From Oligoflexus sp. (GTDB lineage Bacteria > Bdellovibrionota_B > Oligoflexia > Oligoflexales > Oligoflexaceae), in NCBI GenBank assembly GCA_041736305.1, contig JBGSTX010000299.1:1-11374 (forward strand): DNA of 11,374 nt, given 5' to 3'. The position numbers were made by a program, and so were the translations under genes. Positions within the stretch are counted from its first letter, which is position 1, and each line of letters opens with the position of its first letter. Shown piece after piece: positions 1 through 11,042 of this stretch. The notes below the pieces were generated by a model. It saw only the letters and a list, made by a program, of their open reading frames with translations. It was not told the origin of the DNA and made no database searches.

Positions 1-347
1 GTCACGGACGCCGCGCTAATCTTCTTACCGATTATACCTTCGCCCTCTGGAAAGGTGAGCAACTTGTCCCCTTTGCCAAAGCCTATTCCGGTCTTACCGA
101 TGTCGAAATACTCGAGCTCGATCGCTGGATTAAAAGTCACACCCGCGAACGCTTCGGCCCTGTTCGCTCCGTCGAACCGCTGCGCGTCTTCGAAATTGCT
201 TTCGAAGGCATAGCGATCTCGAAACGACACAAGGCGGGTATAGCCGTGCGTTTTCCCCGCATTCTGCGCGAGCGGTTCGATAAGAAAGCTGCGGATGCCG
301 ATACCGTGGCGAAAGCCCAGGAGTTGATCGATGGCGCAAACCCCTAG
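1..347 (+). CDS. ATP-dependent DNA ligase, C-terminal OB-fold domain (5'-truncated by window edge)
   Basis: Manual translation from nt 3: HGRRANLLTDYTFALWKGEQLVPFAKAYSGLTDVEILELDRWIKSHTRERFGPVRSVEPLRVFEIAFEGIAISKRHKAGIAVRFPRILRERFDKKAADADTVAKAQELIDGANP*. TDYTFA, KAYSGLTD, FGPVR and the motif VI RFPR..R.R.DK are typical of the helicase-associated bacterial ATP-dependent ligase (TIGR04120-type). Stop TAG at 345-347 overlaps the helicase start by 17 nt. Confidence 0.95.
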   Translation, partial: HGRRANLLTDYTFALWKGEQLVPFAKAYSGLTDVEILELDRWIKSHTRERFGPVRSVEPLRVFEIAFEGIAISKRHKAGIAVRFPRILRERFDKKAADADTVAKAQELIDGANP

Positions 348-2883
348 AAAAAGAGCGTCGAAAGCAGTCCTTCCACCCCGCCGCTGGACCCCGGAGGAAG
401 GCCGTAAGCTCATCGAAGGCTGGTTCGCGAGCAAATCCTGGCAGATCCTGGAGCATCAGCAAAAAACTTGGCAGGCTATCGCGAGCGGGCGCAGCGGAAT
501 TTTACAGATGCCGACGGGGAGCGGCAAGACCTATGCCTCCTTCCTCGGCTTTCTTCCTGAGCTAGGCAGCGGTGAAACCGGCCTGCGTCTCCTCTATATT
601 ACGCCTCTGCGCGCTCTAGCTCGCGATATAGAATTAGCTCTGCAAGAACCCTGTCGCGAACTCGGTCTCGATCTCCGGGTCGAGAGCCGCACAGGAGATA
701 GCTCTCAGGCCCTGCGCCGCCGCCAGAAGAACGAGCTGCCGCATATTTTGATTACGACTCCAGAGTCACTCGCTTTGCTTCTGACCTATGCGAATGCAGC
801 CAGCGATTTTGCTCGGGTCAAAGCTTGTATCATCGATGAATGGCACGAGCTCCTCGGCAGCAAACGTGGCTCACTGCTTGAACTCACGATGACGCGCCTT
901 CGCAGTTTTGCACCCGGACTGCGGACCTGGGCACTGAGCGCGACTCTACCGAATCTTAAAGAAGCGGCTGCGACCGCTTGCGGTGTAGCTAGCGAGGTCG
1001 AGATTCTTTCTCTCGGCGCCGGACGTCCGATCGCGCTTAGCACTATCATGCCCACTGAATCCTATCGCTTGCCCGACGCCGGACGGATTGGACTGGCGAT
1101 GGTTCCGCAGGTGCTCGAGGCTCTCGATCTACGTTTTTCAACGTTGATTTTTACCAATACGCGAGCCCAGGCTGAGCTCTGGTACGAAGCTCTGGCGATG
1201 AGTCGCCCGGAATGGGATAAAGCTCTTGCCCTGCATCACGGCTCTCTGCACCTCGAAGTCCGAGAGGCTGTTGAGCGAGGCGTGAAAGAAGGCCAAGTTC
1301 GCATCGTAGTCTGTACCTCGACCCTCGACCTTGGCGTTGATTTTCCTGAAGTGGACCGCGTCATCCAAATTGGTTCCCCAAAGCGGATCAGCCGCCTCGT
1401 GCAGCGGGCAGGACGCTCGGGTCACTCGCCTCAGCAGAAAGCTCAACTCGCTCTGGTGCCGACCATGGGCCTAGAACTCTTCGAATTCCTCGCCTGCCGG
1501 CGAGCTCTAGCCCAGGGTCTCATGGAAAACCGCTGTCCTTTGCGGCAACCCCTCGATGTACTGATTCAACATCTGGTGAGCTCGGCTTTGGGTGGAGGTT
1601 TTGTAGCAGACGAGCTTTATAACGAGATCAGACTCAGCTATAGCTATCACCATCTCACGCGTGAGGTTTTCGACTGGGCCCTGCAGTTCGTAGTCGAAGG
1701 AGGAGGAACGCTGAAGGCCTATCCCCAGTACTGCAAGGTCGTGCTGGAAGATGGCGTGTTTCGAGTTACGGATCGAACTATAAGCATCCGCCACCGACAG
1801 AATATCGGAACCATCCTTTCTGAATCTTCGATCGCTGTGAAGCTAGGCAGACGACTGCTTGGCAATATCGACGAGCAATTTATCGGTAGGTTGCGCAAAG
1901 GTGAGCGCTTTCTCTTCGCGGGCCGTTGGCTCGAGCTCATTTCCCTCAAAGACCTTACGGCCTACACGCGTCTCGCCAAGACTGCAAAAGATGGGCTGAC
2001 CCCAAGTTGGGGTGGTAGCCGACTGCCATGGTCGAATGTTTTAAGTGCCTCTCTGCGCTCGCTACTCGATGAACTGCATGCTCCAGCAAGTTCTTGGCGC
2101 GAGCCTGAATTTGCTGCCCTACTGCCGATTATCGAAGAGCAGCAGAGGGTCTCTCTTTGGCCCTGCTCCGGGGAGCTCTTAGCCGAGCTTCTCTCCAGCC
2201 GGGAGGGACAGCATCTATTCATTTTTCCATTTGAAGGACAGGCGGTTCACGAGGGAATAGCAGCTCTCCTCAGCTACCGAGTCTCCTGCCGATTTCCGGC
2301 TAGCTATGCTGTCGCAGCTAACGATTATGGCTTTGAGCTACTCAGCTCCGTTAGCATTCCCTGGAACGAAGAGCTTCTGCTCGAGCTTTTGAGCCCGCAA
2401 AATCTAGAAGTGGATCTCCGAGCCTCCCTCAATCATTCTGAACTCGCCAAGCGTCGTTTCCGCGCCATCGCCCGGATAGCCGGTCTCGTCATTCAGAATC
2501 TACCAGGCCGTAAGCATAACAACTTCCAGCTTCAGAGTAGTAGCTCTCTGCTATTCGATGTGTTCCAGCGCTTTGATCCTGAGAATCTTCTCCTGAGGCA
2601 GGCGGAAGAAGAAGTCAGCGAGCAGCAGTTTGAGATGGAGCGACTGACGGCAACACTCGCGAGACTTGCAAGCAGCCCGCAGCTCTGGACTCATCCTGAA
2701 ACCTTTTCACCTCTCGGTCTGCCCATCCACCGCGAGCGGGTAAGTCTCAGACAATCGAGCGAAAGCCCGCTGCAGCGAATTGAAAGGATGAAAAATTCAT
2801 GGTCTGTACAAGGCAAATCGAGGGGGAAACCATCACGCTATGCCCAGAAAAAGCGGTCTACTGGGCAGGACGCAAGACCCTGA
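331..2883 (+). CDS. Ligase-associated DNA damage response DEXH-box helicase (Lhr-core type, SF2)
   Basis: 850 aa. Motif I PTGSGKT, Ia TPLRAL, II DEWH, III SAT, HHGSL, V TSTLDLGVD, VI QRAGRSGH. Lhr-type C-terminal region (ELAKRRFRAIARIAGLV). AGGAG SD at 319-323, 7 nt before ATG. Lies between ligase and PdeM as in the TIGR04120-04123 cluster. Confidence 0.95.
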   Translation: MAQTPRKRASKAVLPPRRWTPEEGRKLIEGWFASKSWQILEHQQKTWQAIASGRSGILQMPTGSGKTYASFLGFLPELGSGETGLRLLYITPLRALARDIELALQEPCRELGLDLRVESRTGDSSQALRRRQKNELPHILITTPESLALLLTYANAASDFARVKACIIDEWHELLGSKRGSLLELTMTRLRSFAPGLRTWALSATLPNLKEAAATACGVASEVEILSLGAGRPIALSTIMPTESYRLPDAGRIGLAMVPQVLEALDLRFSTLIFTNTRAQAELWYEALAMSRPEWDKALALHHGSLHLEVREAVERGVKEGQVRIVVCTSTLDLGVDFPEVDRVIQIGSPKRISRLVQRAGRSGHSPQQKAQLALVPTMGLELFEFLACRRALAQGLMENRCPLRQPLDVLIQHLVSSALGGGFVADELYNEIRLSYSYHHLTREVFDWALQFVVEGGGTLKAYPQYCKVVLEDGVFRVTDRTISIRHRQNIGTILSESSIAVKLGRRLLGNIDEQFIGRLRKGERFLFAGRWLELISLKDLTAYTRLAKTAKDGLTPSWGGSRLPWSNVLSASLRSLLDELHAPASSWREPEFAALLPIIEEQQRVSLWPCSGELLAELLSSREGQHLFIFPFEGQAVHEGIAALLSYRVSCRFPASYAVAANDYGFELLSSVSIPWNEELLLELLSPQNLEVDLRASLNHSELAKRRFRAIARIAGLVIQNLPGRKHNNFQLQSSSSLLFDVFQRFDPENLLLRQAEEEVSEQQFEMERLTATLARLASSPQLWTHPETFSPLGLPIHRERVSLRQSSESPLQRIERMKNSWSVQGKSRGKPSRYAQKKRSTGQDARP

Positions 2884-3476
2884 TGGTGGCCGACCTCCAC
2901 TGGGGAAAGGCCGAAATATTTCAGCAAGCCGGTATACCTGTTAGCAGCCAGACTCTCGACGAGGACCTCGCTATCCTTGGGCGTCTCATTAGAGACAGCG
3001 GCGCCGAAAAGGTGCTCTTGCTTGGGGATCTGATTCACGGTAAGTCTGGTCTTACGACGGATCTCAAAGAGAGAGTCAGTAGATGGCGGCAATCGATAGA
3101 CGCGAAATTGACTCTGATCGCCGGCAATCATGATCGACACGTGGCTGCATTGCCCCCAAGCTGGGATATGGAAATTCTTCGTGAAAGCTATGATGAAGGC
3201 CCCTTTCACTTCGCACATCATCCAGCCGAGGAGCCTGGCCGTTACACCTGGTGCGGCCACCTACACCCGACCGTAGTACTCGGGCGCCGGCTCGACCGTA
3301 TGCGCCTCGCTTGCTTTTGGCTGCAGCCTCGCTGTGGGGTTCTACCCTCCTTCGGCAGCTTTACCGGTGGGGCTGTAATTCGTCCAGGTTCGAAAGATCA
3401 GGTTTACGCCATCGCCGAAGAGCAGGTGATCGCCTTACATCGTGAGGAAGACGCATGGAAAAACCAAACTCACTGA
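2799..3476 (+). CDS. pdeM: Ligase-associated DNA damage response endonuclease PdeM/MPE (calcineurin-like metallophosphoesterase)
   Basis: 225 aa. Metallophosphoesterase motifs ADLHWGK, LLGDLIH, GNHD, HHP, GHLHP; C-terminal LPSFGSFTGG; directly downstream of the Lhr-core helicase. Confidence 0.92.
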   Translation: MVCTRQIEGETITLCPEKAVYWAGRKTLMVADLHWGKAEIFQQAGIPVSSQTLDEDLAILGRLIRDSGAEKVLLLGDLIHGKSGLTTDLKERVSRWRQSIDAKLTLIAGNHDRHVAALPPSWDMEILRESYDEGPFHFAHHPAEEPGRYTWCGHLHPTVVLGRRLDRMRLACFWLQPRCGVLPSFGSFTGGAVIRPGSKDQVYAIAEEQVIALHREEDAWKNQTH

Positions 3477-4960
3477 AAGATGCTTACGGACTCCATTGGT
3501 TTTGTCGCGATCTGCGTATTCTAGGCAACGCTGGACTTGAGTGGAACCATAGGGAGTTCCACGGTAGAGTGCTCGGGATCTACTGCTGGCAGAATGCGGA
3601 ATCCAGCAGCGAGGGCTATCCAGCCAATCAAAATCTCTTTCTCTTAGAAACTTTGGCTGCGCTCAAGAGCGAGCTTGAGCAGCGAGGCTCGGGACTGCTC
3701 TTCTTCGAAGCCAGTCCCAGCGACGCCTTTAAGCAGCTACTGCAAAAATTGGAAGGGCGGCGGCTCCCAGCAGCTATCTCTTGGAACCGTTGCTACGAAC
3801 CCAGTGCTCTCCGCGACGAGGAAGCCATCCGTGAGCTGCTCACCGCCCGTGGTATCGTTCCCCACAGCGAGCGAGACCAGCTGCTTATCGAGCCCCACGA
3901 AATTTTTAAGGAAAGTAATAAGCGGCAGCCCTATCAGGTTTATACGCCCTTTCGCAAGCAGTGGATGAAAGCTTTCCAGACCGGCGATGTAACAGAACGA
4001 GTTGCCCGGCAAAAAAAGGCCTTGCGCCGGCGCGCGTCTGCACAAGCTGACTTCGGTCTCACCGGACCCGAGCTTCTCACGGCGCCTTTCTACGAGGCAT
4101 CTTCGCAGCGCTTAGCGAATGCCATCGAAAAGCTACGAGCTAGAGTGAGTATAACTCTGCCTTCAGCTGGACATAAATCGGCTCTCCTCCAAGTAAAGGC
4201 CTTCGCCAAGAGCCTGGATGCCTATCACGAGCAACGCGACATTCCGAGCATCGGAGGCACCTCGCGCTTCTCGGCCTATCTCAACAATGGCTCTCTGACC
4301 ATCGATCAGGTTATTGCTTCCTATGATCTGGGAGCTGCTGAAGAGGCCGATAGTGCTCGTCATAAATTCTTCGGTGAATTGATCTGGCGGGAATTTTACT
4401 ACTATATACTGAGCCGTTTTCCCTACGTTGAGCTCGAGTCATTTAACTCGCGCTACCGCTCGATGCGCTGGGATAATCGCGAAGATTGGTTCACCCGTTG
4501 GAAGGAAGGCCAGACCGGCTACCCTATAGTCGACGCCGGCATGCGCGAACTCCTAGAAACCGGTTGGATGCACAATCGCGTCCGCATGATCGTGGCCTCT
4601 TTTCTCTGCAAAGATCTACTGATTGACTGGCGCTGGGGTGAGAAACATTTCCTAGAGCATCTTATCGATGGCGATCCTGCCTTAAATAATGGTGGCTGGC
4701 AGTGGGCAGCTTCGACTGGCTGTGATCCTCAGCCTTATTTTCGGATCTTTAACCCCGAACTTCAGAGTCAAAAATTTGATCCGGAAGGCCTCTATATCAA
4801 GCGCTTCGTACCAGAACTTATGCATTTGAGTCCCAAACGCATCCATGCACCTGATAAGAAAGAACGAGGCTCGCGTTATCCCCTACCTCTGGTCGATCAC
4901 GCGGCTCAGAAGCCCAAGGCACTGGCTCTCTATAAAAGCTCGGGAACCTTGGCCAAATAA
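3455..4960 (+). CDS. phrB: Deoxyribodipyrimidine (CPD) photolyase, class I type
   Basis: 501 aa. N-terminal WFCRDLR, PYQVYTPF, TSRFSAYL, ELIWREFY, and FAD domain GQTGYPIVDAGMREL..TGWMHNRVRMIVASFL, IDWRWG, NNGGWQWAASTG, PYFRIFNP, KFDP.G.YIKRFVPEL. GAGG SD at 3444-3447. 22-nt overlap with pdeM. Confidence 0.93.
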   Translation: MEKPNSLKDAYGLHWFCRDLRILGNAGLEWNHREFHGRVLGIYCWQNAESSSEGYPANQNLFLLETLAALKSELEQRGSGLLFFEASPSDAFKQLLQKLEGRRLPAAISWNRCYEPSALRDEEAIRELLTARGIVPHSERDQLLIEPHEIFKESNKRQPYQVYTPFRKQWMKAFQTGDVTERVARQKKALRRRASAQADFGLTGPELLTAPFYEASSQRLANAIEKLRARVSITLPSAGHKSALLQVKAFAKSLDAYHEQRDIPSIGGTSRFSAYLNNGSLTIDQVIASYDLGAAEEADSARHKFFGELIWREFYYYILSRFPYVELESFNSRYRSMRWDNREDWFTRWKEGQTGYPIVDAGMRELLETGWMHNRVRMIVASFLCKDLLIDWRWGEKHFLEHLIDGDPALNNGGWQWAASTGCDPQPYFRIFNPELQSQKFDPEGLYIKRFVPELMHLSPKRIHAPDKKERGSRYPLPLVDHAAQKPKALALYKSSGTLAK

Positions 4961-4970
4961 TGCAGAAATC

Positions 4971-5078
4971 TTAGACGCGTGGCTGCAGATGCGAGTGATA
5001 GGAGAGTTTGACCTTCCAGGCAAGATACTGAAGTCCGAGCAAGAGATCCAGAATCGTCTCACGCATGATGCGGCGCAT
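4971..5078 (-). CDS. Putative 35-aa small protein MRRIMRETILDLLLGLQYLAWKVKLSYHSHLQPRV
   Basis: Minus-strand ATG at 5078 to TAA at 4973-4971, preceded by GAGGGAGG with GGAGG (5090-5086) 7 nt from ATG. Fits entirely in the gap between phrB and the barrel gene. Below the ORF-track size cutoff. Confidence 0.55.
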   Translation of the reverse strand: MRRIMRETILDLLLGLQYLAWKVKLSYHSHLQPRV

Positions 5079-5085
5079 AAGTAAT

Positions 5086-5135
5086 CCTCCCTCGTTATCC
5101 GTCTCAATCTATAAGTTCGGTTTAAGACGGGGAGG
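5086..5135 (-). promoter_or_regulatory. Predicted SD-sequestering leader hairpin of the small ORF
   Basis: Minus strand: CCTCC-CCGTCTTAA-(14-nt loop)-TTGAGACGG-(8-nt bulge)-GGAGG. A 9-bp stem with one G-U pair, plus 5-bp anti-SD/SD pairing. Confidence 0.45.
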
Positions 5136-5191
5136 CGACTTTCGCAAGCAAAAATGGAAGCAGCGCACTTGAAAAATCATACATTTCTGTT

Positions 5192-6727
5192 TTAAATCTG
5201 CAGCTCCTGGCCGAGTCCGAGCGTGATGGTAGCCCGGTGCAGATTTTCACCTGTTTGTAGAAGTTTAAGTAGCTCATAACTTAGATCGATCGAGAAATAA
5301 GGCTGGATGCGCGCTGAGCCTGAAGCCCACCGCTGCCGGTAGGAGCTGGTCCAGATCAGAGCCTGTCTTTCCCCATCACTACGCGCTCCGAGGACAGTCT
5401 CCTGCAGATTAAGACCTAACTCTGTCGCATCTTCACGATTCCGCCGCAGCTCTAGCCTTTGCTGGATGTCGCTGGCCCGATTCAAGCGGTAACTGCTCGT
5501 GGCTGTGGTGCTTAGATTATCTACTTTTGCGCCGATGAAACGCTGCTCATCCTTTACGACTAAAAGCGACCAGCGGCTTCTACCGGTTTGAAAATTCCAA
5601 GCTAAGGAACTCTGTATCGTGTACTGCTGCTCCGTATCGAACAAGAGATTTTCGGCCGTATAGCTCGTATAGTAGCGGAGAAGATCAACTTCCTTGCTGA
5701 CACTTAGAACCAAATTGCTCCGCGGGCTGATAAGATAGTTGAGCGAAAGTGCCCCATAACCCTGGCCTTGGGTATCGAGGGCTCCCTGTTCGCGAAGCAG
5801 AGAAAACTGGGCCTCCCAACCTAAACGCCCGTCTGGGCTTCTCGCTAAAGTGAGTCCAGGACCCTCAACCTGCCGCCTTTCCCCATCGGTAAACGAGGTC
5901 CGCAAGACCTGGTAGCCAAGCCCTAGACGGAAACGCGGACTCACGGCTGAGCTGATGAAGGAATTGAGTGATTCGAGATCCTGCCGACGAGTCCTACCCC
6001 CTGGATCATCGCTCAGTAGATCATTGAAACTCAGTTGATAAGCCTGTCCGTTCGTATCCCAGCTGATGCGGCTCCATCGCTTGCTGAAACCCGCACCAAC
6101 GCCCACCAGCTCAGTCACATCTTTGCGTCGCGTATCGAGTCGATAATCGTTGCGTCGAGCTTGAGTACTGAACAGGAGATCGAGGGTAGGCGTCGCCCGG
6201 TAGGTATCGGCTAGATCGAAGTCGATGCCCCATTCCTGACTTCGTTCGATCGCCTCACCAGGTGTAGCTGCCGTCGTTCCATCGACAGGCGCGAGGAGAT
6301 ACTGTGCTTCGAGATCCTGGAAAGCAGCACTGCCCTTGAAGAGCGAAGCGTTGAGTCCGAGTGTGAGGGTAAGCTGGTGATCTGCGATCCGGCGCTGCCA
6401 TACGCTGTCAGCACTCAGCTGGGCGAAGTGATCACTCTGCTTCCCAAGTCCAAGAGTCCAGTTAAGATTCTGCTGCTGACTTCTGCCTTCGGCCTGGCGA
6501 TTGCGATTGAACTGCGCACGGTCTAAGAAAAAAAGGACATCTTCGCCCTCAGAGGGACTATCCCTCCAGAAACGAGCGTTCCAGACGGCATTACTGTGAT
6601 CAAAGCGTCTTTGTACAGTTTCACGCTCGATCACTAGGGCCTGCGCGCCGGCCAGCGGCGCTCCCGTGAACAGTCCGAGCCAAAGCCATCGCTGCAAAAG
6701 TCGGCTACCCACAGGCAAATTTCCCAT
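5192..6727 (-). CDS. Predicted large outer-membrane beta-barrel protein, possibly for polysaccharide export
   Basis: Start reassigned from 6949 to ATG 6727 (511 aa). This removes the overlap with the divergent gene, exposes a signal-peptide-like N-terminus (MGNLPVGSRLLQRWLWLGLFTGAPLAGAQA) and places the start downstream of a sigma70 promoter. Many alternating amphipathic strands with aromatic girdle and short turns (YRATPTLDLLF, SPRFRLGLGYQ, LSLNYLISPRSNLVLSVS, YFSIDLSYE, HRATITLGLGQ). Confidence 0.7.
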   Translation of the reverse strand: MGNLPVGSRLLQRWLWLGLFTGAPLAGAQALVIERETVQRRFDHSNAVWNARFWRDSPSEGEDVLFFLDRAQFNRNRQAEGRSQQQNLNWTLGLGKQSDHFAQLSADSVWQRRIADHQLTLTLGLNASLFKGSAAFQDLEAQYLLAPVDGTTAATPGEAIERSQEWGIDFDLADTYRATPTLDLLFSTQARRNDYRLDTRRKDVTELVGVGAGFSKRWSRISWDTNGQAYQLSFNDLLSDDPGGRTRRQDLESLNSFISSAVSPRFRLGLGYQVLRTSFTDGERRQVEGPGLTLARSPDGRLGWEAQFSLLREQGALDTQGQGYGALSLNYLISPRSNLVLSVSKEVDLLRYYTSYTAENLLFDTEQQYTIQSSLAWNFQTGRSRWSLLVVKDEQRFIGAKVDNLSTTATSSYRLNRASDIQQRLELRRNREDATELGLNLQETVLGARSDGERQALIWTSSYRQRWASGSARIQPYFSIDLSYELLKLLQTGENLHRATITLGLGQELQI

Positions 6728-6761
6728 ATCCTGGCATGCATAAATTCGAGGAATTCGTAGT

Positions 6762-6790
6762 ATTATAGGGTTGCCTGATTCGAATAGCAA
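6762..6790 (-). promoter_or_regulatory. Sigma70-type promoter for the beta-barrel gene
   Basis: Minus strand TTGCTA (6790-6785), 17-nt spacer, perfect TATAAT (6767-6762), ending about 35 nt upstream of ATG 6727. Confidence 0.65.
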
Positions 6791-6808
6791 CACGACCTTA
6801 CCAAGCCC

Positions 6809-8308
6809 ATGAGGTGCCTCGTGCCATCGCTTCCCAATACATCTCTCTGGCAAGGGGAGAGCCCACGGGCTTCGCTGCGCTGGTCCCTCTTTCTCTTGGC
6901 CTTGGCGGCGCTCGCTTCCTCCCTGCTTTTTATCAAGTACGTAGGTCAACCTATCTGCCTCGCACCGCTCTTGCTTTTTGCAGGATGGCGCTTGCTTCCC
7001 CTACTCGGTGAGCGGGCTGATCAGAGAATTTTCATTGGTTTTATGGTGCTATGCCTGGGGATCGACGATATGTCTCAGGTCGCTTGGGGTCGTAACGTAG
7101 ACATCCTGACAGAAGAGCTCGGAGTGATCCTCTTCAAATCCTTCGGTCTCACAGGAATGGAATATTTTGCAATTGGGTTCAGCCTCTGGCTGGTTTTAGC
7201 GCGCTCGCGGCAGCACATCATGCTGTGGATGCGAGAGGACGTAATCAAGATAGTAGCTCTAGCTTCAAGCATCTTCATTGCCAGTACGCTGGCTGGCATC
7301 TACGGCCTCAGTACCGGTGCCGACTTCAACACCTACCTGATTCAAACTCGTTTTCTTCATATCCTGCCCTTCTGGGTTTTTATAGGCTTTGTTCTCTTCC
7401 GCGATGTGGAGTTTGTCCAGCGTTTAATCTTTTGGATAACTCTCCTGGTCGTGCTCAAATCTCTCCAAGCCGTCCTCGTCTACCTTATCTATCGCTCTCA
7501 GTTTGCAGAAGCTGAATATCTGATTGATCACTATTTTTCGGCTTATTCGGTGATCGCTTCCGTCGCTCTCATTGGCTACTTTATGGAATCGCGCAGTCCC
7601 CTCATCAAAGTCCTCATCGCTGTGAGCAGCCTCACGGTTCTGACCGCCTATATTCTCAACGATCGTCGAACTTCATACGTCGGCGTGGGCCTGGCGGCTA
7701 TGCTGCTTCCCGCTTTGATACCCGCTGCTTGGTTGCGTCGTCATGCCCCCAAACTGCTTTTCAGCGGAGGCTTGGCTCTGGCCTTCATCGGGGCAACCTG
7801 GCCCCTGCCGCCCCCCATTGGCTTTGTCGGAGCTACCATTCGCTCATTCGGTAGCGAAGACGGCACCGAAGGACCGAGCTATCGTGACCTTGAAAACGCC
7901 AATCTCTTCGGTGCTGCTGCCTCGAGTCCATTGACGGGAATTGGCTATGGAAAGGAATTCACCGAGACTTACCAGATGCCCGATATTTCGTTCGTTTATG
8001 CGCGCTATCGCATGCTGCCGCATAATCTCTTTTTAGCTTCTTGGGGATTCGGCGGCCCGTTGACGGTGGCCGCGACCAGTCTTATCTTTGTAACGATGAT
8101 CTGGCTAGCTGGTAGGCTGATTCGAGAGGGTTGGCAAACTCCCTTCGCCTTCTGTGGCATCATAGCTCTCTTCTATGCCCTGCAGTATTTTTCTTATACT
8201 TTTGGCGATATCGGCCTCCAAATCAATAGGAACCAGATGTTTGCCGGTCTCTTCCTCGGGGGTAGCTTCCGACTCCTCCAGTGCCTCCAGCGTAATAAGG
8301 CGGTTTGA
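6809..8308 (+). CDS. O-antigen ligase / Wzy-family polytopic membrane protein
   Basis: 499 aa with about a dozen hydrophobic segments and Wzy_C/WaaL-type motifs NDRRTSYVG, SYRDLE...SPLTGIGYG and PHNLFL. The true start may be GTG 6821, which follows GAGGTG (6811-6816). Confidence 0.8.
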   Translation: MRCLVPSLPNTSLWQGESPRASLRWSLFLLALAALASSLLFIKYVGQPICLAPLLLFAGWRLLPLLGERADQRIFIGFMVLCLGIDDMSQVAWGRNVDILTEELGVILFKSFGLTGMEYFAIGFSLWLVLARSRQHIMLWMREDVIKIVALASSIFIASTLAGIYGLSTGADFNTYLIQTRFLHILPFWVFIGFVLFRDVEFVQRLIFWITLLVVLKSLQAVLVYLIYRSQFAEAEYLIDHYFSAYSVIASVALIGYFMESRSPLIKVLIAVSSLTVLTAYILNDRRTSYVGVGLAAMLLPALIPAAWLRRHAPKLLFSGGLALAFIGATWPLPPPIGFVGATIRSFGSEDGTEGPSYRDLENANLFGAAASSPLTGIGYGKEFTETYQMPDISFVYARYRMLPHNLFLASWGFGGPLTVAATSLIFVTMIWLAGRLIREGWQTPFAFCGIIALFYALQYFSYTFGDIGLQINRNQMFAGLFLGGSFRLLQCLQRNKAV

Positions 8309-10076: not shown

Positions 10077-11042
10077 ATGAACTTGCTGCGGCTGCGTCTT
10101 CTCTTGCTACCTTTGCTCTCCCTAGTTGTTTTTTCACAAGCTTGTTCCAAAAGTGAAGATTCCGAAAGCCAAGGTATTTCTTCTACTACTTGTGAGACTC
10201 AGTATCCAATCCTGCTAGTCCATGGGGTAGCATTGCGCGACAAGCTCTTGGGCATCAGTTACTTTAACCGCATTCCCAAATACCTCAGCGACAACTGCAA
10301 GGTTCCCATCTTCTTTGGCAACACCGATGCTTTTGGACTAGGCGAAGACAATGCAGATCAGCTAAAAAAGACAATTATCAACATCACCGACAATCTCGGC
10401 TACGGCAAGGTCAATGTTATTGCCCACTCCAAAGGTGGTCTCGATATGCGCTTCATGTTCTATAGGAATAATGGAACTGAGTTTGACGGACGCACTTTGA
10501 ACGACCGCGTCGCATCTTTTACCACCCTTGGTACGCCGCACCGGGGAAGTGTCCTAGCCGATTATCTGTTTGAAAAAATAAGTGCTAATGGCGAAGATCT
10601 TCTCGACAAGGTTCTCACCGTCTTTGGCCGAATCATTGGCGATTCGAACCATACTGACCCGCAAGGCGCTCTAGATCTCTTGACCCGTAAATCTATGGAA
10701 AAGTGGAACGCGACTATGGGCGATCTCGAAAAAGGTATCGATGGCGTCTACTGCCAAAGTTGGGCCGGGTTCATCTCAGGCGCTATCTCCGATCCCGTCT
10801 TTTTTTCGACTTCGAGCATCATGGCCCAACAGGGAAGTCCGGTCAACGATGGAGCCGTGGAAGAACCCTCGGCCATCTATGGCAATTATCGAGGAACGGT
10901 GGGCAGTGGCATGATAGGGGGCGTCTCGCATATGGCCCTGGTCGATAAAGCGCAACTCATCACCAACGGCGTAACGCCCGGCTTTGATCCACGGGTATTT
11001 TATCAGAAAATACTCTCTGAGCTTTCTGAGAGAGGTTATTAA
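10077..11042 (+). CDS. Lipase/esterase (alpha/beta hydrolase), predicted lipoprotein
   Basis: 321 aa. Leu-rich signal ending SQA-C23 followed by a Ser/Glu-rich tether. Oxyanion motif YPILLVHG, nucleophile elbow AHSKGG, TLGTPHRGS, catalytic Asp in NDGAV, His in VSHMAL. Confidence 0.88.
   Translation: MNLLRLRLLLLPLLSLVVFSQACSKSEDSESQGISSTTCETQYPILLVHGVALRDKLLGISYFNRIPKYLSDNCKVPIFFGNTDAFGLGEDNADQLKKTIINITDNLGYGKVNVIAHSKGGLDMRFMFYRNNGTEFDGRTLNDRVASFTTLGTPHRGSVLADYLFEKISANGEDLLDKVLTVFGRIIGDSNHTDPQGALDLLTRKSMEKWNATMGDLEKGIDGVYCQSWAGFISGAISDPVFFSTSSIMAQQGSPVNDGAVEEPSAIYGNYRGTVGSGMIGGVSHMALVDKAQLITNGVTPGFDPRVFYQKILSELSERGY

Follow-up and report, generated by a model that had tools for sequence, protein, structure and literature searches.

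A candidate lineage-restricted small-protein gene with an ordinary structured leader between converging genes of Oligoflexus sp.

Membrane-associated type I toxins, as portrayed in the portions of a paper drawn on here, are hydrophobic, shorter than 60 amino acids, and equipped with a putative transmembrane helix (PMC8309996). Their cationic residues are located mostly in the C-terminal part, they have an antisense RNA as partner, and the ribosome binding site is often sequestered (PMC8309996). As far as these portions go, membrane type I toxins had by 2021 been described only in Proteobacteria and Firmicutes (PMC8309996). Known members of this class are TisB, AapA1, Ldr/Fst, and Ibs. An earlier note on a contig of Oligoflexus sp. 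had proposed a comparable architecture, or else a translational switch, for a minus-strand open reading frame (ORF) of 35 codons whose Shine–Dalgarno sequence (SD) appeared to be locked in a hairpin. Here we favor, with slightly better than even confidence, a more ordinary reading, namely that the ORF is a genuine gene for a lineage-restricted small protein, preceded by a leader whose structure is ordinary. It is probably genuine because its SD and coding-like dicodons jointly stand above decoys and because its frame is kept in a second strain (X2, see below). The weights given to this and to the competing readings are judgments and not computed values.

The window, i.e., the whole stretch of DNA that was analyzed, is a single complete contig (C53) of 11,374 bases from a draft genome of 5.0 Mb (392 contigs, 51% G+C). 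The small ORF (4971..5078, minus strand) starts with an ATG at 5078, ends with a TAA stop at 4973-4971, and encodes the peptide that the earlier note had quoted. It sits in a gap of 231 nt (4961-5191) with converging genes on both sides. One of these is a photolyase gene on the plus strand (3455..4960; PF03441 at 1.1e-81, PF00875 at 2.8e-29), which converges on the small ORF and whose stop is only 10 nt away from that of the small ORF, a crowding that counts against a genuine gene. The two transcripts would have to overlap if both are made, because their stops are 10 nt apart with no terminator in between, and nothing apart from this overlap has the potential to set the locus apart. The other is a 585-aa ORF (5192..6949, minus strand) without any Pfam match, located upstream of the small ORF in the same orientation; 113 nt separate its stop from the ATG, and it could be a co-transcription partner. 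The photolyase gene belongs to a DNA-repair cluster with overlapping ends (331-4960, plus strand), other members of which are an Lhr-type helicase (331-2883, plus strand), with Oligoflexus MAGs as nearest named relatives (52–59% identity), and a calcineurin-like phosphoesterase (2799-3476, plus strand).

Of 13 same-genus genomes, 12 contain homologs of the 585-aa family, the 27 others searched contain none, and a pattern scan of genome contigs with this ORF gave no loci. Its closest homolog is a 494-aa ORF in the same-genus genome G009. Homologs align only from about residue 79–143 onward, which concerns especially the stretch 6727-6949; a signal-peptide-like stretch seems to follow an internal Met near residue 75, and the true start of the ORF is probably located further in. 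The top promoter-like site of the window, TTGCTA-17-TATAAT (10 of 12 matches), is found at 6790-6762 on the minus strand. A 499-aa ORF (6809-8308, plus strand) diverges from the 585-aa ORF and has a weak match to Wzy_C (O-antigen ligase; 23.8 bits, below the cut-off of 31.7); the long-ORF calls overlap at 6809-6949.

The small ORF is preceded by the SD GAGGGAGG (5086..5093, minus strand), with a 7-nt spacer to the ATG and the same sequence in strain X2. GGAGG occurs 26 times on the two strands of the window, and only in this case does an ATG follow 5–9 nt downstream, which bears out its description as the best SD in the window. The open frame begins right after a TAG (5111-5109), and there is no start codon ahead of the ATG. 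An identical 35-aa protein is already contained in a public protein collection (from an 11,374-base contig, source NCBI), which is not independent evidence, and from which it follows that some gene caller has already called the ORF. The ORF presented earlier as hidden and unannotated is present as described, but it was not absent from public calls. As to transcription, the TATGAT reported as a -10-like hexamer is indeed found (5176..5181, minus strand), but a role as promoter is unsupported: checked by eye at 16–18 nt spacing, it has no -35 partner with more than two of six matches, and a scan of both strands from 4700 to 5500, which was crude and may not reflect the consensus of the host, detected no sigma-70-like site. 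Scanning of 4700-5500 likewise reported no terminator for the small ORF.

The genome makes regular use of SDs: among its 2587 ORFs with a length of 250 aa or more, 1714 show an SD-like motif close to a candidate start, compared to 334 in which it is seen at a control position inside the ORF. When long ORFs are set aside, GGAGG-N5-9-ATG is found ahead of an ORF of 30–44 aa 21 times, compared to 25, 17, 30, and 15 times at decoy spacings; the respective counts are 34 versus 6–10 for ORFs of 60–99 aa, and 171 versus 19–21 for ORFs of at least 100 aa. A strong SD before a 30–44-aa ORF is a chance-level event in this genome and uninformative alone. These numbers suit the assumption that ATG, GGAGG, and open frame coincide by accident in a non-coding spacer between converging genes, as do the missing homologs, the failure to see a promoter or terminator, and the z-scores about 0 of larger folds (see below).

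The composition of the small ORF argues against such a coincidence. According to a dicodon coding model trained on the long ORFs of the genome, with contig C53 left out, the log-odds of its 33 dicodons amount to +20.0 bits versus intergenic background and +22.7 bits versus non-coding frames, whereas true-gene segments of equal length reach 13.6 ± 7.9 and 16.7 ± 8.6 bits, respectively. The score of the small ORF is attained by 0.6% of 1711 intergenic ATG-ORFs of 30–45 aa and by 1.0% of 2804 wrong-frame ORFs, which places it in the top 0.6–1% of both negative sets. In a six-frame profile, the photolyase frame is positive to about 4910 and the frame of the 585-aa ORF from about 5240; between these flanking genes only the frame of the small ORF is positive, with 15.8 and 13.9 bits in 60-nt windows at 5030 and 5060. 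Counting against the gene, the coding signal declines over the final third of the ORF, to 2.5 bits for the 60-nt window centered on 5000.

Taken jointly, SD and coding score are more telling than the SD alone. Among 2137 intergenic ORFs of 25–60 aa, strong or medium SDs are found in about 3–5% of those scoring below 5 bits and in 28% of those with at least 20 bits, so that SD frequency climbs with the coding score, the pattern one would expect with real genes among the highest-scoring ORFs. In a joint control with 2088 ORFs, four, including the small ORF, combine at least 20 bits with GGAGG or AGGAG at 4–10 nt, versus 0, 1, 0, 0, and 0 at five decoy spacings (0.2 expected). With a threshold of at least 15 bits the count is nine, versus 2, 1, 0, 1, and 0 at the decoys (0.8 expected). 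This class, about 10–20-fold over decoys, would hardly be expected if its members were accidents. Two of the eight other members with at least 15 bits and a strong SD match Pfam, one with Fer2_BFD (39.9 bits, above its cut-off) and one with CcmD (23.0 bits, E 8.7e-5, slightly under its cut-off). The other six have no Pfam match, and four of them, searched in 20 relatives, gave no homolog, with one weak match at E 0.009; owing to these four, the class is validated in part only, by the two Pfam cases. The six strong-SD ORFs (C346:195-317, C188:26382-26486, C137:744-845, C332:16854-16976, and C249:13414-13554 on the minus strand, and C94:12077-12256 on the plus strand; all with at least 15 bits) span 33–59 aa and are candidate orphan small proteins with a standing equal to that of the small ORF.

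A direct comparison is offered by the public run X2, which contains a strain about 3% divergent whose contig covers 4563-5888 (1326 nt), differs at 43 positions, and is free of indels; it would also serve other comparative work on this contig. The list of these differences is, as far as can be judged, complete up to 5390, and contigs from the runs X5 and X6 agree with it exactly (8 and 2 differences, respectively); X5, X6, and X3 cover small parts of the locus only. Within the photolyase gene, 23 of the 31 differences listed are at third codon positions, a bias showing that real genes can be recognized in this comparison. Six differences fall into the gap, at 4967, 4969, 4980, 5043, 5045, and 5102. 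The first two lie between the two stops, the one at 4980 is synonymous in the codon of Pro33, those at 5043 and 5045 together change codon 12 from CTC to ATG (L12M), and the one at 5102 falls into the stem-loop discussed below. ATG, stop, SD, and anti-SD are identical, and the ORF is intact in X2, with three substitutions, which are too few for a dN/dS test. Read in overlapping frames, the same changes cause W>R, E>H, S>C, and H>R; the changes are hence mildest in the frame of the small ORF, but with two codons affected this carries little weight.

With 6 changes in 231 nt, the gap differs less than the third positions of the photolyase gene predict (P 0.0012), which also speaks against a spacer free of function, although against the flanking rate P is just 0.18. 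The leader (5079-5191), with 1 of 113 positions changed, is likewise below the photolyase third-position prediction (P 0.0015) and not clearly below the rate of the immediately flanking coding sequence (P 0.056), so that constraint on the leader is hinted at by the sequence. Considering the high coding score, the joint excess over decoys, and the substitution pattern together, we regard an accidental ORF as unlikely. The conclusion of the earlier note that a small protein is encoded here is probably right, given the well-spaced SD, the coding-like dicodons, the joint excess, and the frame that is intact in X2.

Beyond X2, the peptide stands alone. The best match in a peptide search of 40 relatives had an E-value of 0.15, at a query length of 35 aa that allows detection of close relatives only, and the seven best weak matches, which were inspected, are internal, interrupted by stops, or both, and look like chance. 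There was no homolog in 98 related loci, phmmer run exhaustively against 1.84 billion cluster representatives retrieved the self match only, and the ESM Atlas contained no usable match. A match of seven residues in the loci L024 and L023 was rejected as chance, since it lies out of frame inside a 318-aa gene. From the searches of the 40 relatives and the 1.84 billion representatives, the small ORF is an orphan without known relatives, in agreement with the earlier note, whose author had not recognized the family. The gap and its hairpin are single-copy without paralogs, by which a repeat or REP-like element was ruled out. A conserved or multicopy locus, which had been suggested as a check, is consequently not what was found: the 40 relatives contain no homologs, the locus is single-copy, and the frame is kept in one strain of about 3% divergence.

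At the DNA level, matches in 17 of 40 other genomes end within the photolyase gene. A metagenome scan with the photolyase gave 80 loci, the best of them just 54% identical, and with this low identity and differing synteny these are useless for comparing the gap. Synteny, moreover, is not kept in G013, G009, L022, and L024, where other genes follow the photolyase or the 585-aa homolog, and this counts against the small ORF. In the same-genus genome G013, a 279-aa plus-strand gene is located between the photolyase gene and the 585-aa homolog (1922-2761 of L002, G013:C79), and in G009 a 110-aa ORF of the RNA-binding type comes after the 585-aa homolog. The genome studied here encodes a homolog of the 279-aa gene on another contig (C85, about 10151-10723, 45% identity), which indicates that the neighborhood has been rearranged.

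Such rearrangement relative to same-genus genomes, with the 279-aa gene of G013 in between, would be compatible with a remnant, in which SD, ATG, and the first 25–35 codons or so, translated or silent, are left over from a longer minus-strand gene that was lost, and serve no selected function. The orphan status of the ORF and a coding signal that resides mainly in its first two thirds point in the same direction. A donor, however, is missing: the gap contains no remains of the 279-aa and 267-aa neighbors, whose best match (E 1.5) lies in another part of the window, and the peptide matches in relatives are at chance level. Neither is there downstream coding in another frame, the overlapping 74-aa frame scoring -0.5 bits per dicodon, and the two strains agree on the sequence without indels. 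We consider a decayed gene to be improbable, to about the same degree as an accidental ORF.

Upstream of the ATG, the minus strand is predicted to fold into a stem-loop (5086..5135) in which CCUCCC and the adjoining CGU (5135-5127) pair with ACG and GGGAGG (5095-5086), with A5092 bulged. The exact anti-SD CCTCC pointed out earlier (5135-5131, minus strand) is present, and its pairing with the SD is recovered in the folds, all of which pair the SD with CCUCCC (probability of the SD being paired about 0.84–0.85). For a 62-nt stretch, the minimum free energy (MFE) fold comprises this 9-bp outer helix (5135-5127/5095-5086) plus small inner stems and has -18.2 kcal/mol, versus -16.7 for the structure of the earlier note, which contains a 9-bp stem (5130-5122/5107-5099) with one U5124-G5105 wobble; the inner fold is ambiguous between these two forms. 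In statistical terms the hairpin is modest: at 62 nt it has a z-score of -2.24, with 2.6% of 500 shuffles folding equally well; z is -1.31 for a fold of 136 nt and about 0 for folds of 251 nt on each strand. The change at 5102 in X2 creates a U-U mismatch in the 9-bp stem, with which the structure drops to -15.1, and adds a pair to the MFE fold, which reaches -21.3; as a single event, it favors the MFE-type inner fold. The stem described earlier can thus be drawn with its one wobble, but the MFE structure has another inner fold, and the sole stem-loop substitution in X2 breaks one pair of that stem. A second, weak hairpin of 8 bp with three G-U pairs, which includes the AUG (5058..5081, minus strand), is predicted in the MFE structure at the edge of the folded stretch, and the pairing probability of the AUG is 0.60 at 37°C.

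The position of this stem-loop between converging genes might also suggest a 3'-end element, i.e., a weak terminator or stabilizer of the converging transcripts, in which case the ORF would be incidental and the G-rich arm an SD lookalike. The two strands indeed fold about equally well (-18.2 kcal/mol on the minus and -17.4 on the plus strand), and a leader with one change in 113 nt would be in line with such a role. Yet an intrinsic terminator is not apparent, as no U-tract follows the hairpin on either strand (AUUACUUAUG minus, CGACUUUCGC plus) and the terminator scan was silent, and a coding-like ORF starting 7 nt later is left unexplained. A 3'-end element thus seems quite unlikely, more so than either an accident or a remnant.

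Whether pairing of the SD is exceptional depends on how it compares to ordinary genes of the same genome. As a control, the opening cost over positions -16 to +3 was calculated for 707 strong-SD ORFs with a length of 150 aa or more. The small ORF, with 9.6 kcal/mol, is close to the control mean of 8.6 ± 3.1, and 34% of the genes have a cost at least as high; the mean pairing probability of its SD region is 0.76, versus 0.60 ± 0.16, a value matched or exceeded by 17%. An exceptional sequestration is therefore not supported, as 34% of the 707 genes are occluded to at least this degree. GGAGG is wholly paired in the MFE fold of 84 out of 269 genes with this motif at 5–9 nt, and 13 of these 269 have a CCTCC within the 90-nt leader. 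Exact GGAGG:CCTCC pairing in the MFE fold of the 90-nt leader occurs in 4 of the 269 long GGAGG genes; it is uncommon, yet found in ordinary long genes.

A regulatory switch finds little more support. The mean pairing probability of GAGGGAGG stays at 0.84 between 20°C and 37°C and decreases only to 0.83 at 55°C and 0.79 at 75°C, and with this lack of melting the suggested RNA thermometer is not borne out. Searching 4700-5500 against Rfam 15 at E ≤ 10 yielded just two chance-level matches (E 1 and 8.4), and the whole window had no match at the gathering score. In view of these Rfam results, the ordinary opening cost, and the missing thermal response, the translational switch put forward earlier is not supported either.

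The peptide itself carries a net charge of +4, with R2, R3, and R6 at the N-terminus and K22, K24, and R34 further on. AlphaFold2, run without an alignment, predicts a single helix spanning residues 2–30 (pLDDT 82). A two-copy complex scored 0.02 in prediction, which speaks neither for nor against it. Hydropathy is balanced, with a GRAVY of -0.02, and the longest run without D, E, K, or R comprises 10 residues. The best 19-residue Kyte–Doolittle mean is 0.96. The usual transmembrane threshold on this scale is 1.6, and no hydrophobic segment of transmembrane length was found in the peptide, which agrees with the earlier remark that its hydrophobic core is short for a transmembrane helix.

The closeness of the photolyase gene permits a further construct, in which a cationic helix would act as effector, the hairpin of an almost invariant leader would keep the SD locked, and transcription of the photolyase gene would itself provide the antisense antitoxin or regulator. 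Such an antisense RNA could come from the photolyase transcript that converges on the ORF. If true, a toxin or switch resembling type I would operate here with no sRNA gene of its own, and this in a phylum for which the consulted portions of the paper describe no such system (PMC8309996); we regard this module as very improbable. Slightly less probable still is the reading of the earlier note itself, a type I toxin-like or switch peptide blocked by SD/anti-SD pairing until processing, refolding, or antisense relief: a cationic, helical peptide of 35 aa, an SD that pairs with an exact CCUCCC (probability about 0.85, with exact GGAGG:CCUCC pairing in just 4 of 269 genes), a leader almost invariant in X2, and a photolyase transcript that would have to run antisense into the ORF, 10 nt away with no terminator, are outweighed by the lack of a transmembrane-length segment, the failure to find an antisense promoter in the crude scan of 4700-5500, the single-copy locus without homologs, and an occlusion of ordinary cost without thermal melting or Rfam match.

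Returning to the favored reading of a genuine small-protein gene with an ordinary leader, its expression can be envisaged as follows. Transcription of the 585-aa gene would continue into the small ORF, or the mRNA would start at a weak promoter within the 113-nt spacer. Ribosomes would load at GAGGGAGG and, after the 7-nt spacer, translate a 35-residue peptide with a net charge of +4, which is predicted to fold as one amphipathic alpha-helix without a core of transmembrane length. The moderately stable stem-loop would represent normal leader structure and act at most as a damper of translation, and not as a switch. As a best guess, the peptide might be a small helix with an accessory or modulating role, acting on a protein partner or on the surface of the membrane. 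If real, it would add one more lineage-restricted small protein to the inventory of a poorly studied group. Two lessons for similar loci are that a strong SD before a short ORF is informative only together with a genome-trained coding score and decoy spacings, and that an SD that looks sequestered by a hairpin should be judged against the ordinary genes of the genome before a switch is inferred. The locus would gain in importance only if a regulatory role emerged for its convergent overlap with the photolyase transcript.

Compared to the known systems, the locus shares with type I toxins a peptide length (35 aa) below 60 aa, a predicted helix, cationic residues also toward the C-terminus, and a leader predicted to pair the SD. 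Unlike these toxins, the peptide as a whole lacks hydrophobic character (GRAVY -0.02) as well as a hydrophobic segment of transmembrane length, the locus is single-copy and without a family, the crude sigma-70-like scan of 4700-5500 detected no promoter for an antitoxin RNA, and the SD is occluded no more strongly than in ordinary genes. With RNA thermometers and translational riboswitches the locus has in common a leader hairpin that engages the SD with a complementary sequence further upstream. In contrast to thermometers, the helix, rich in G-C pairs, is not predicted to open anywhere between 20 and 75°C, and in contrast to riboswitches there is neither an Rfam match nor an evident ligand-binding architecture. 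The third comparison is with the bacterial proteins of fewer than 50 aa that are rarely or never called in annotation. From known small proteins the candidate differs in having no known family, partner, or phenotype and in its location at the 3' end of a converging pair and not in an operon of related function. It resembles them in possessing its own SD, a coding-like composition, and a restricted taxonomic range, and the same combination of SD and coding score recovers Bfd-like and CcmD-like small proteins in this genome.
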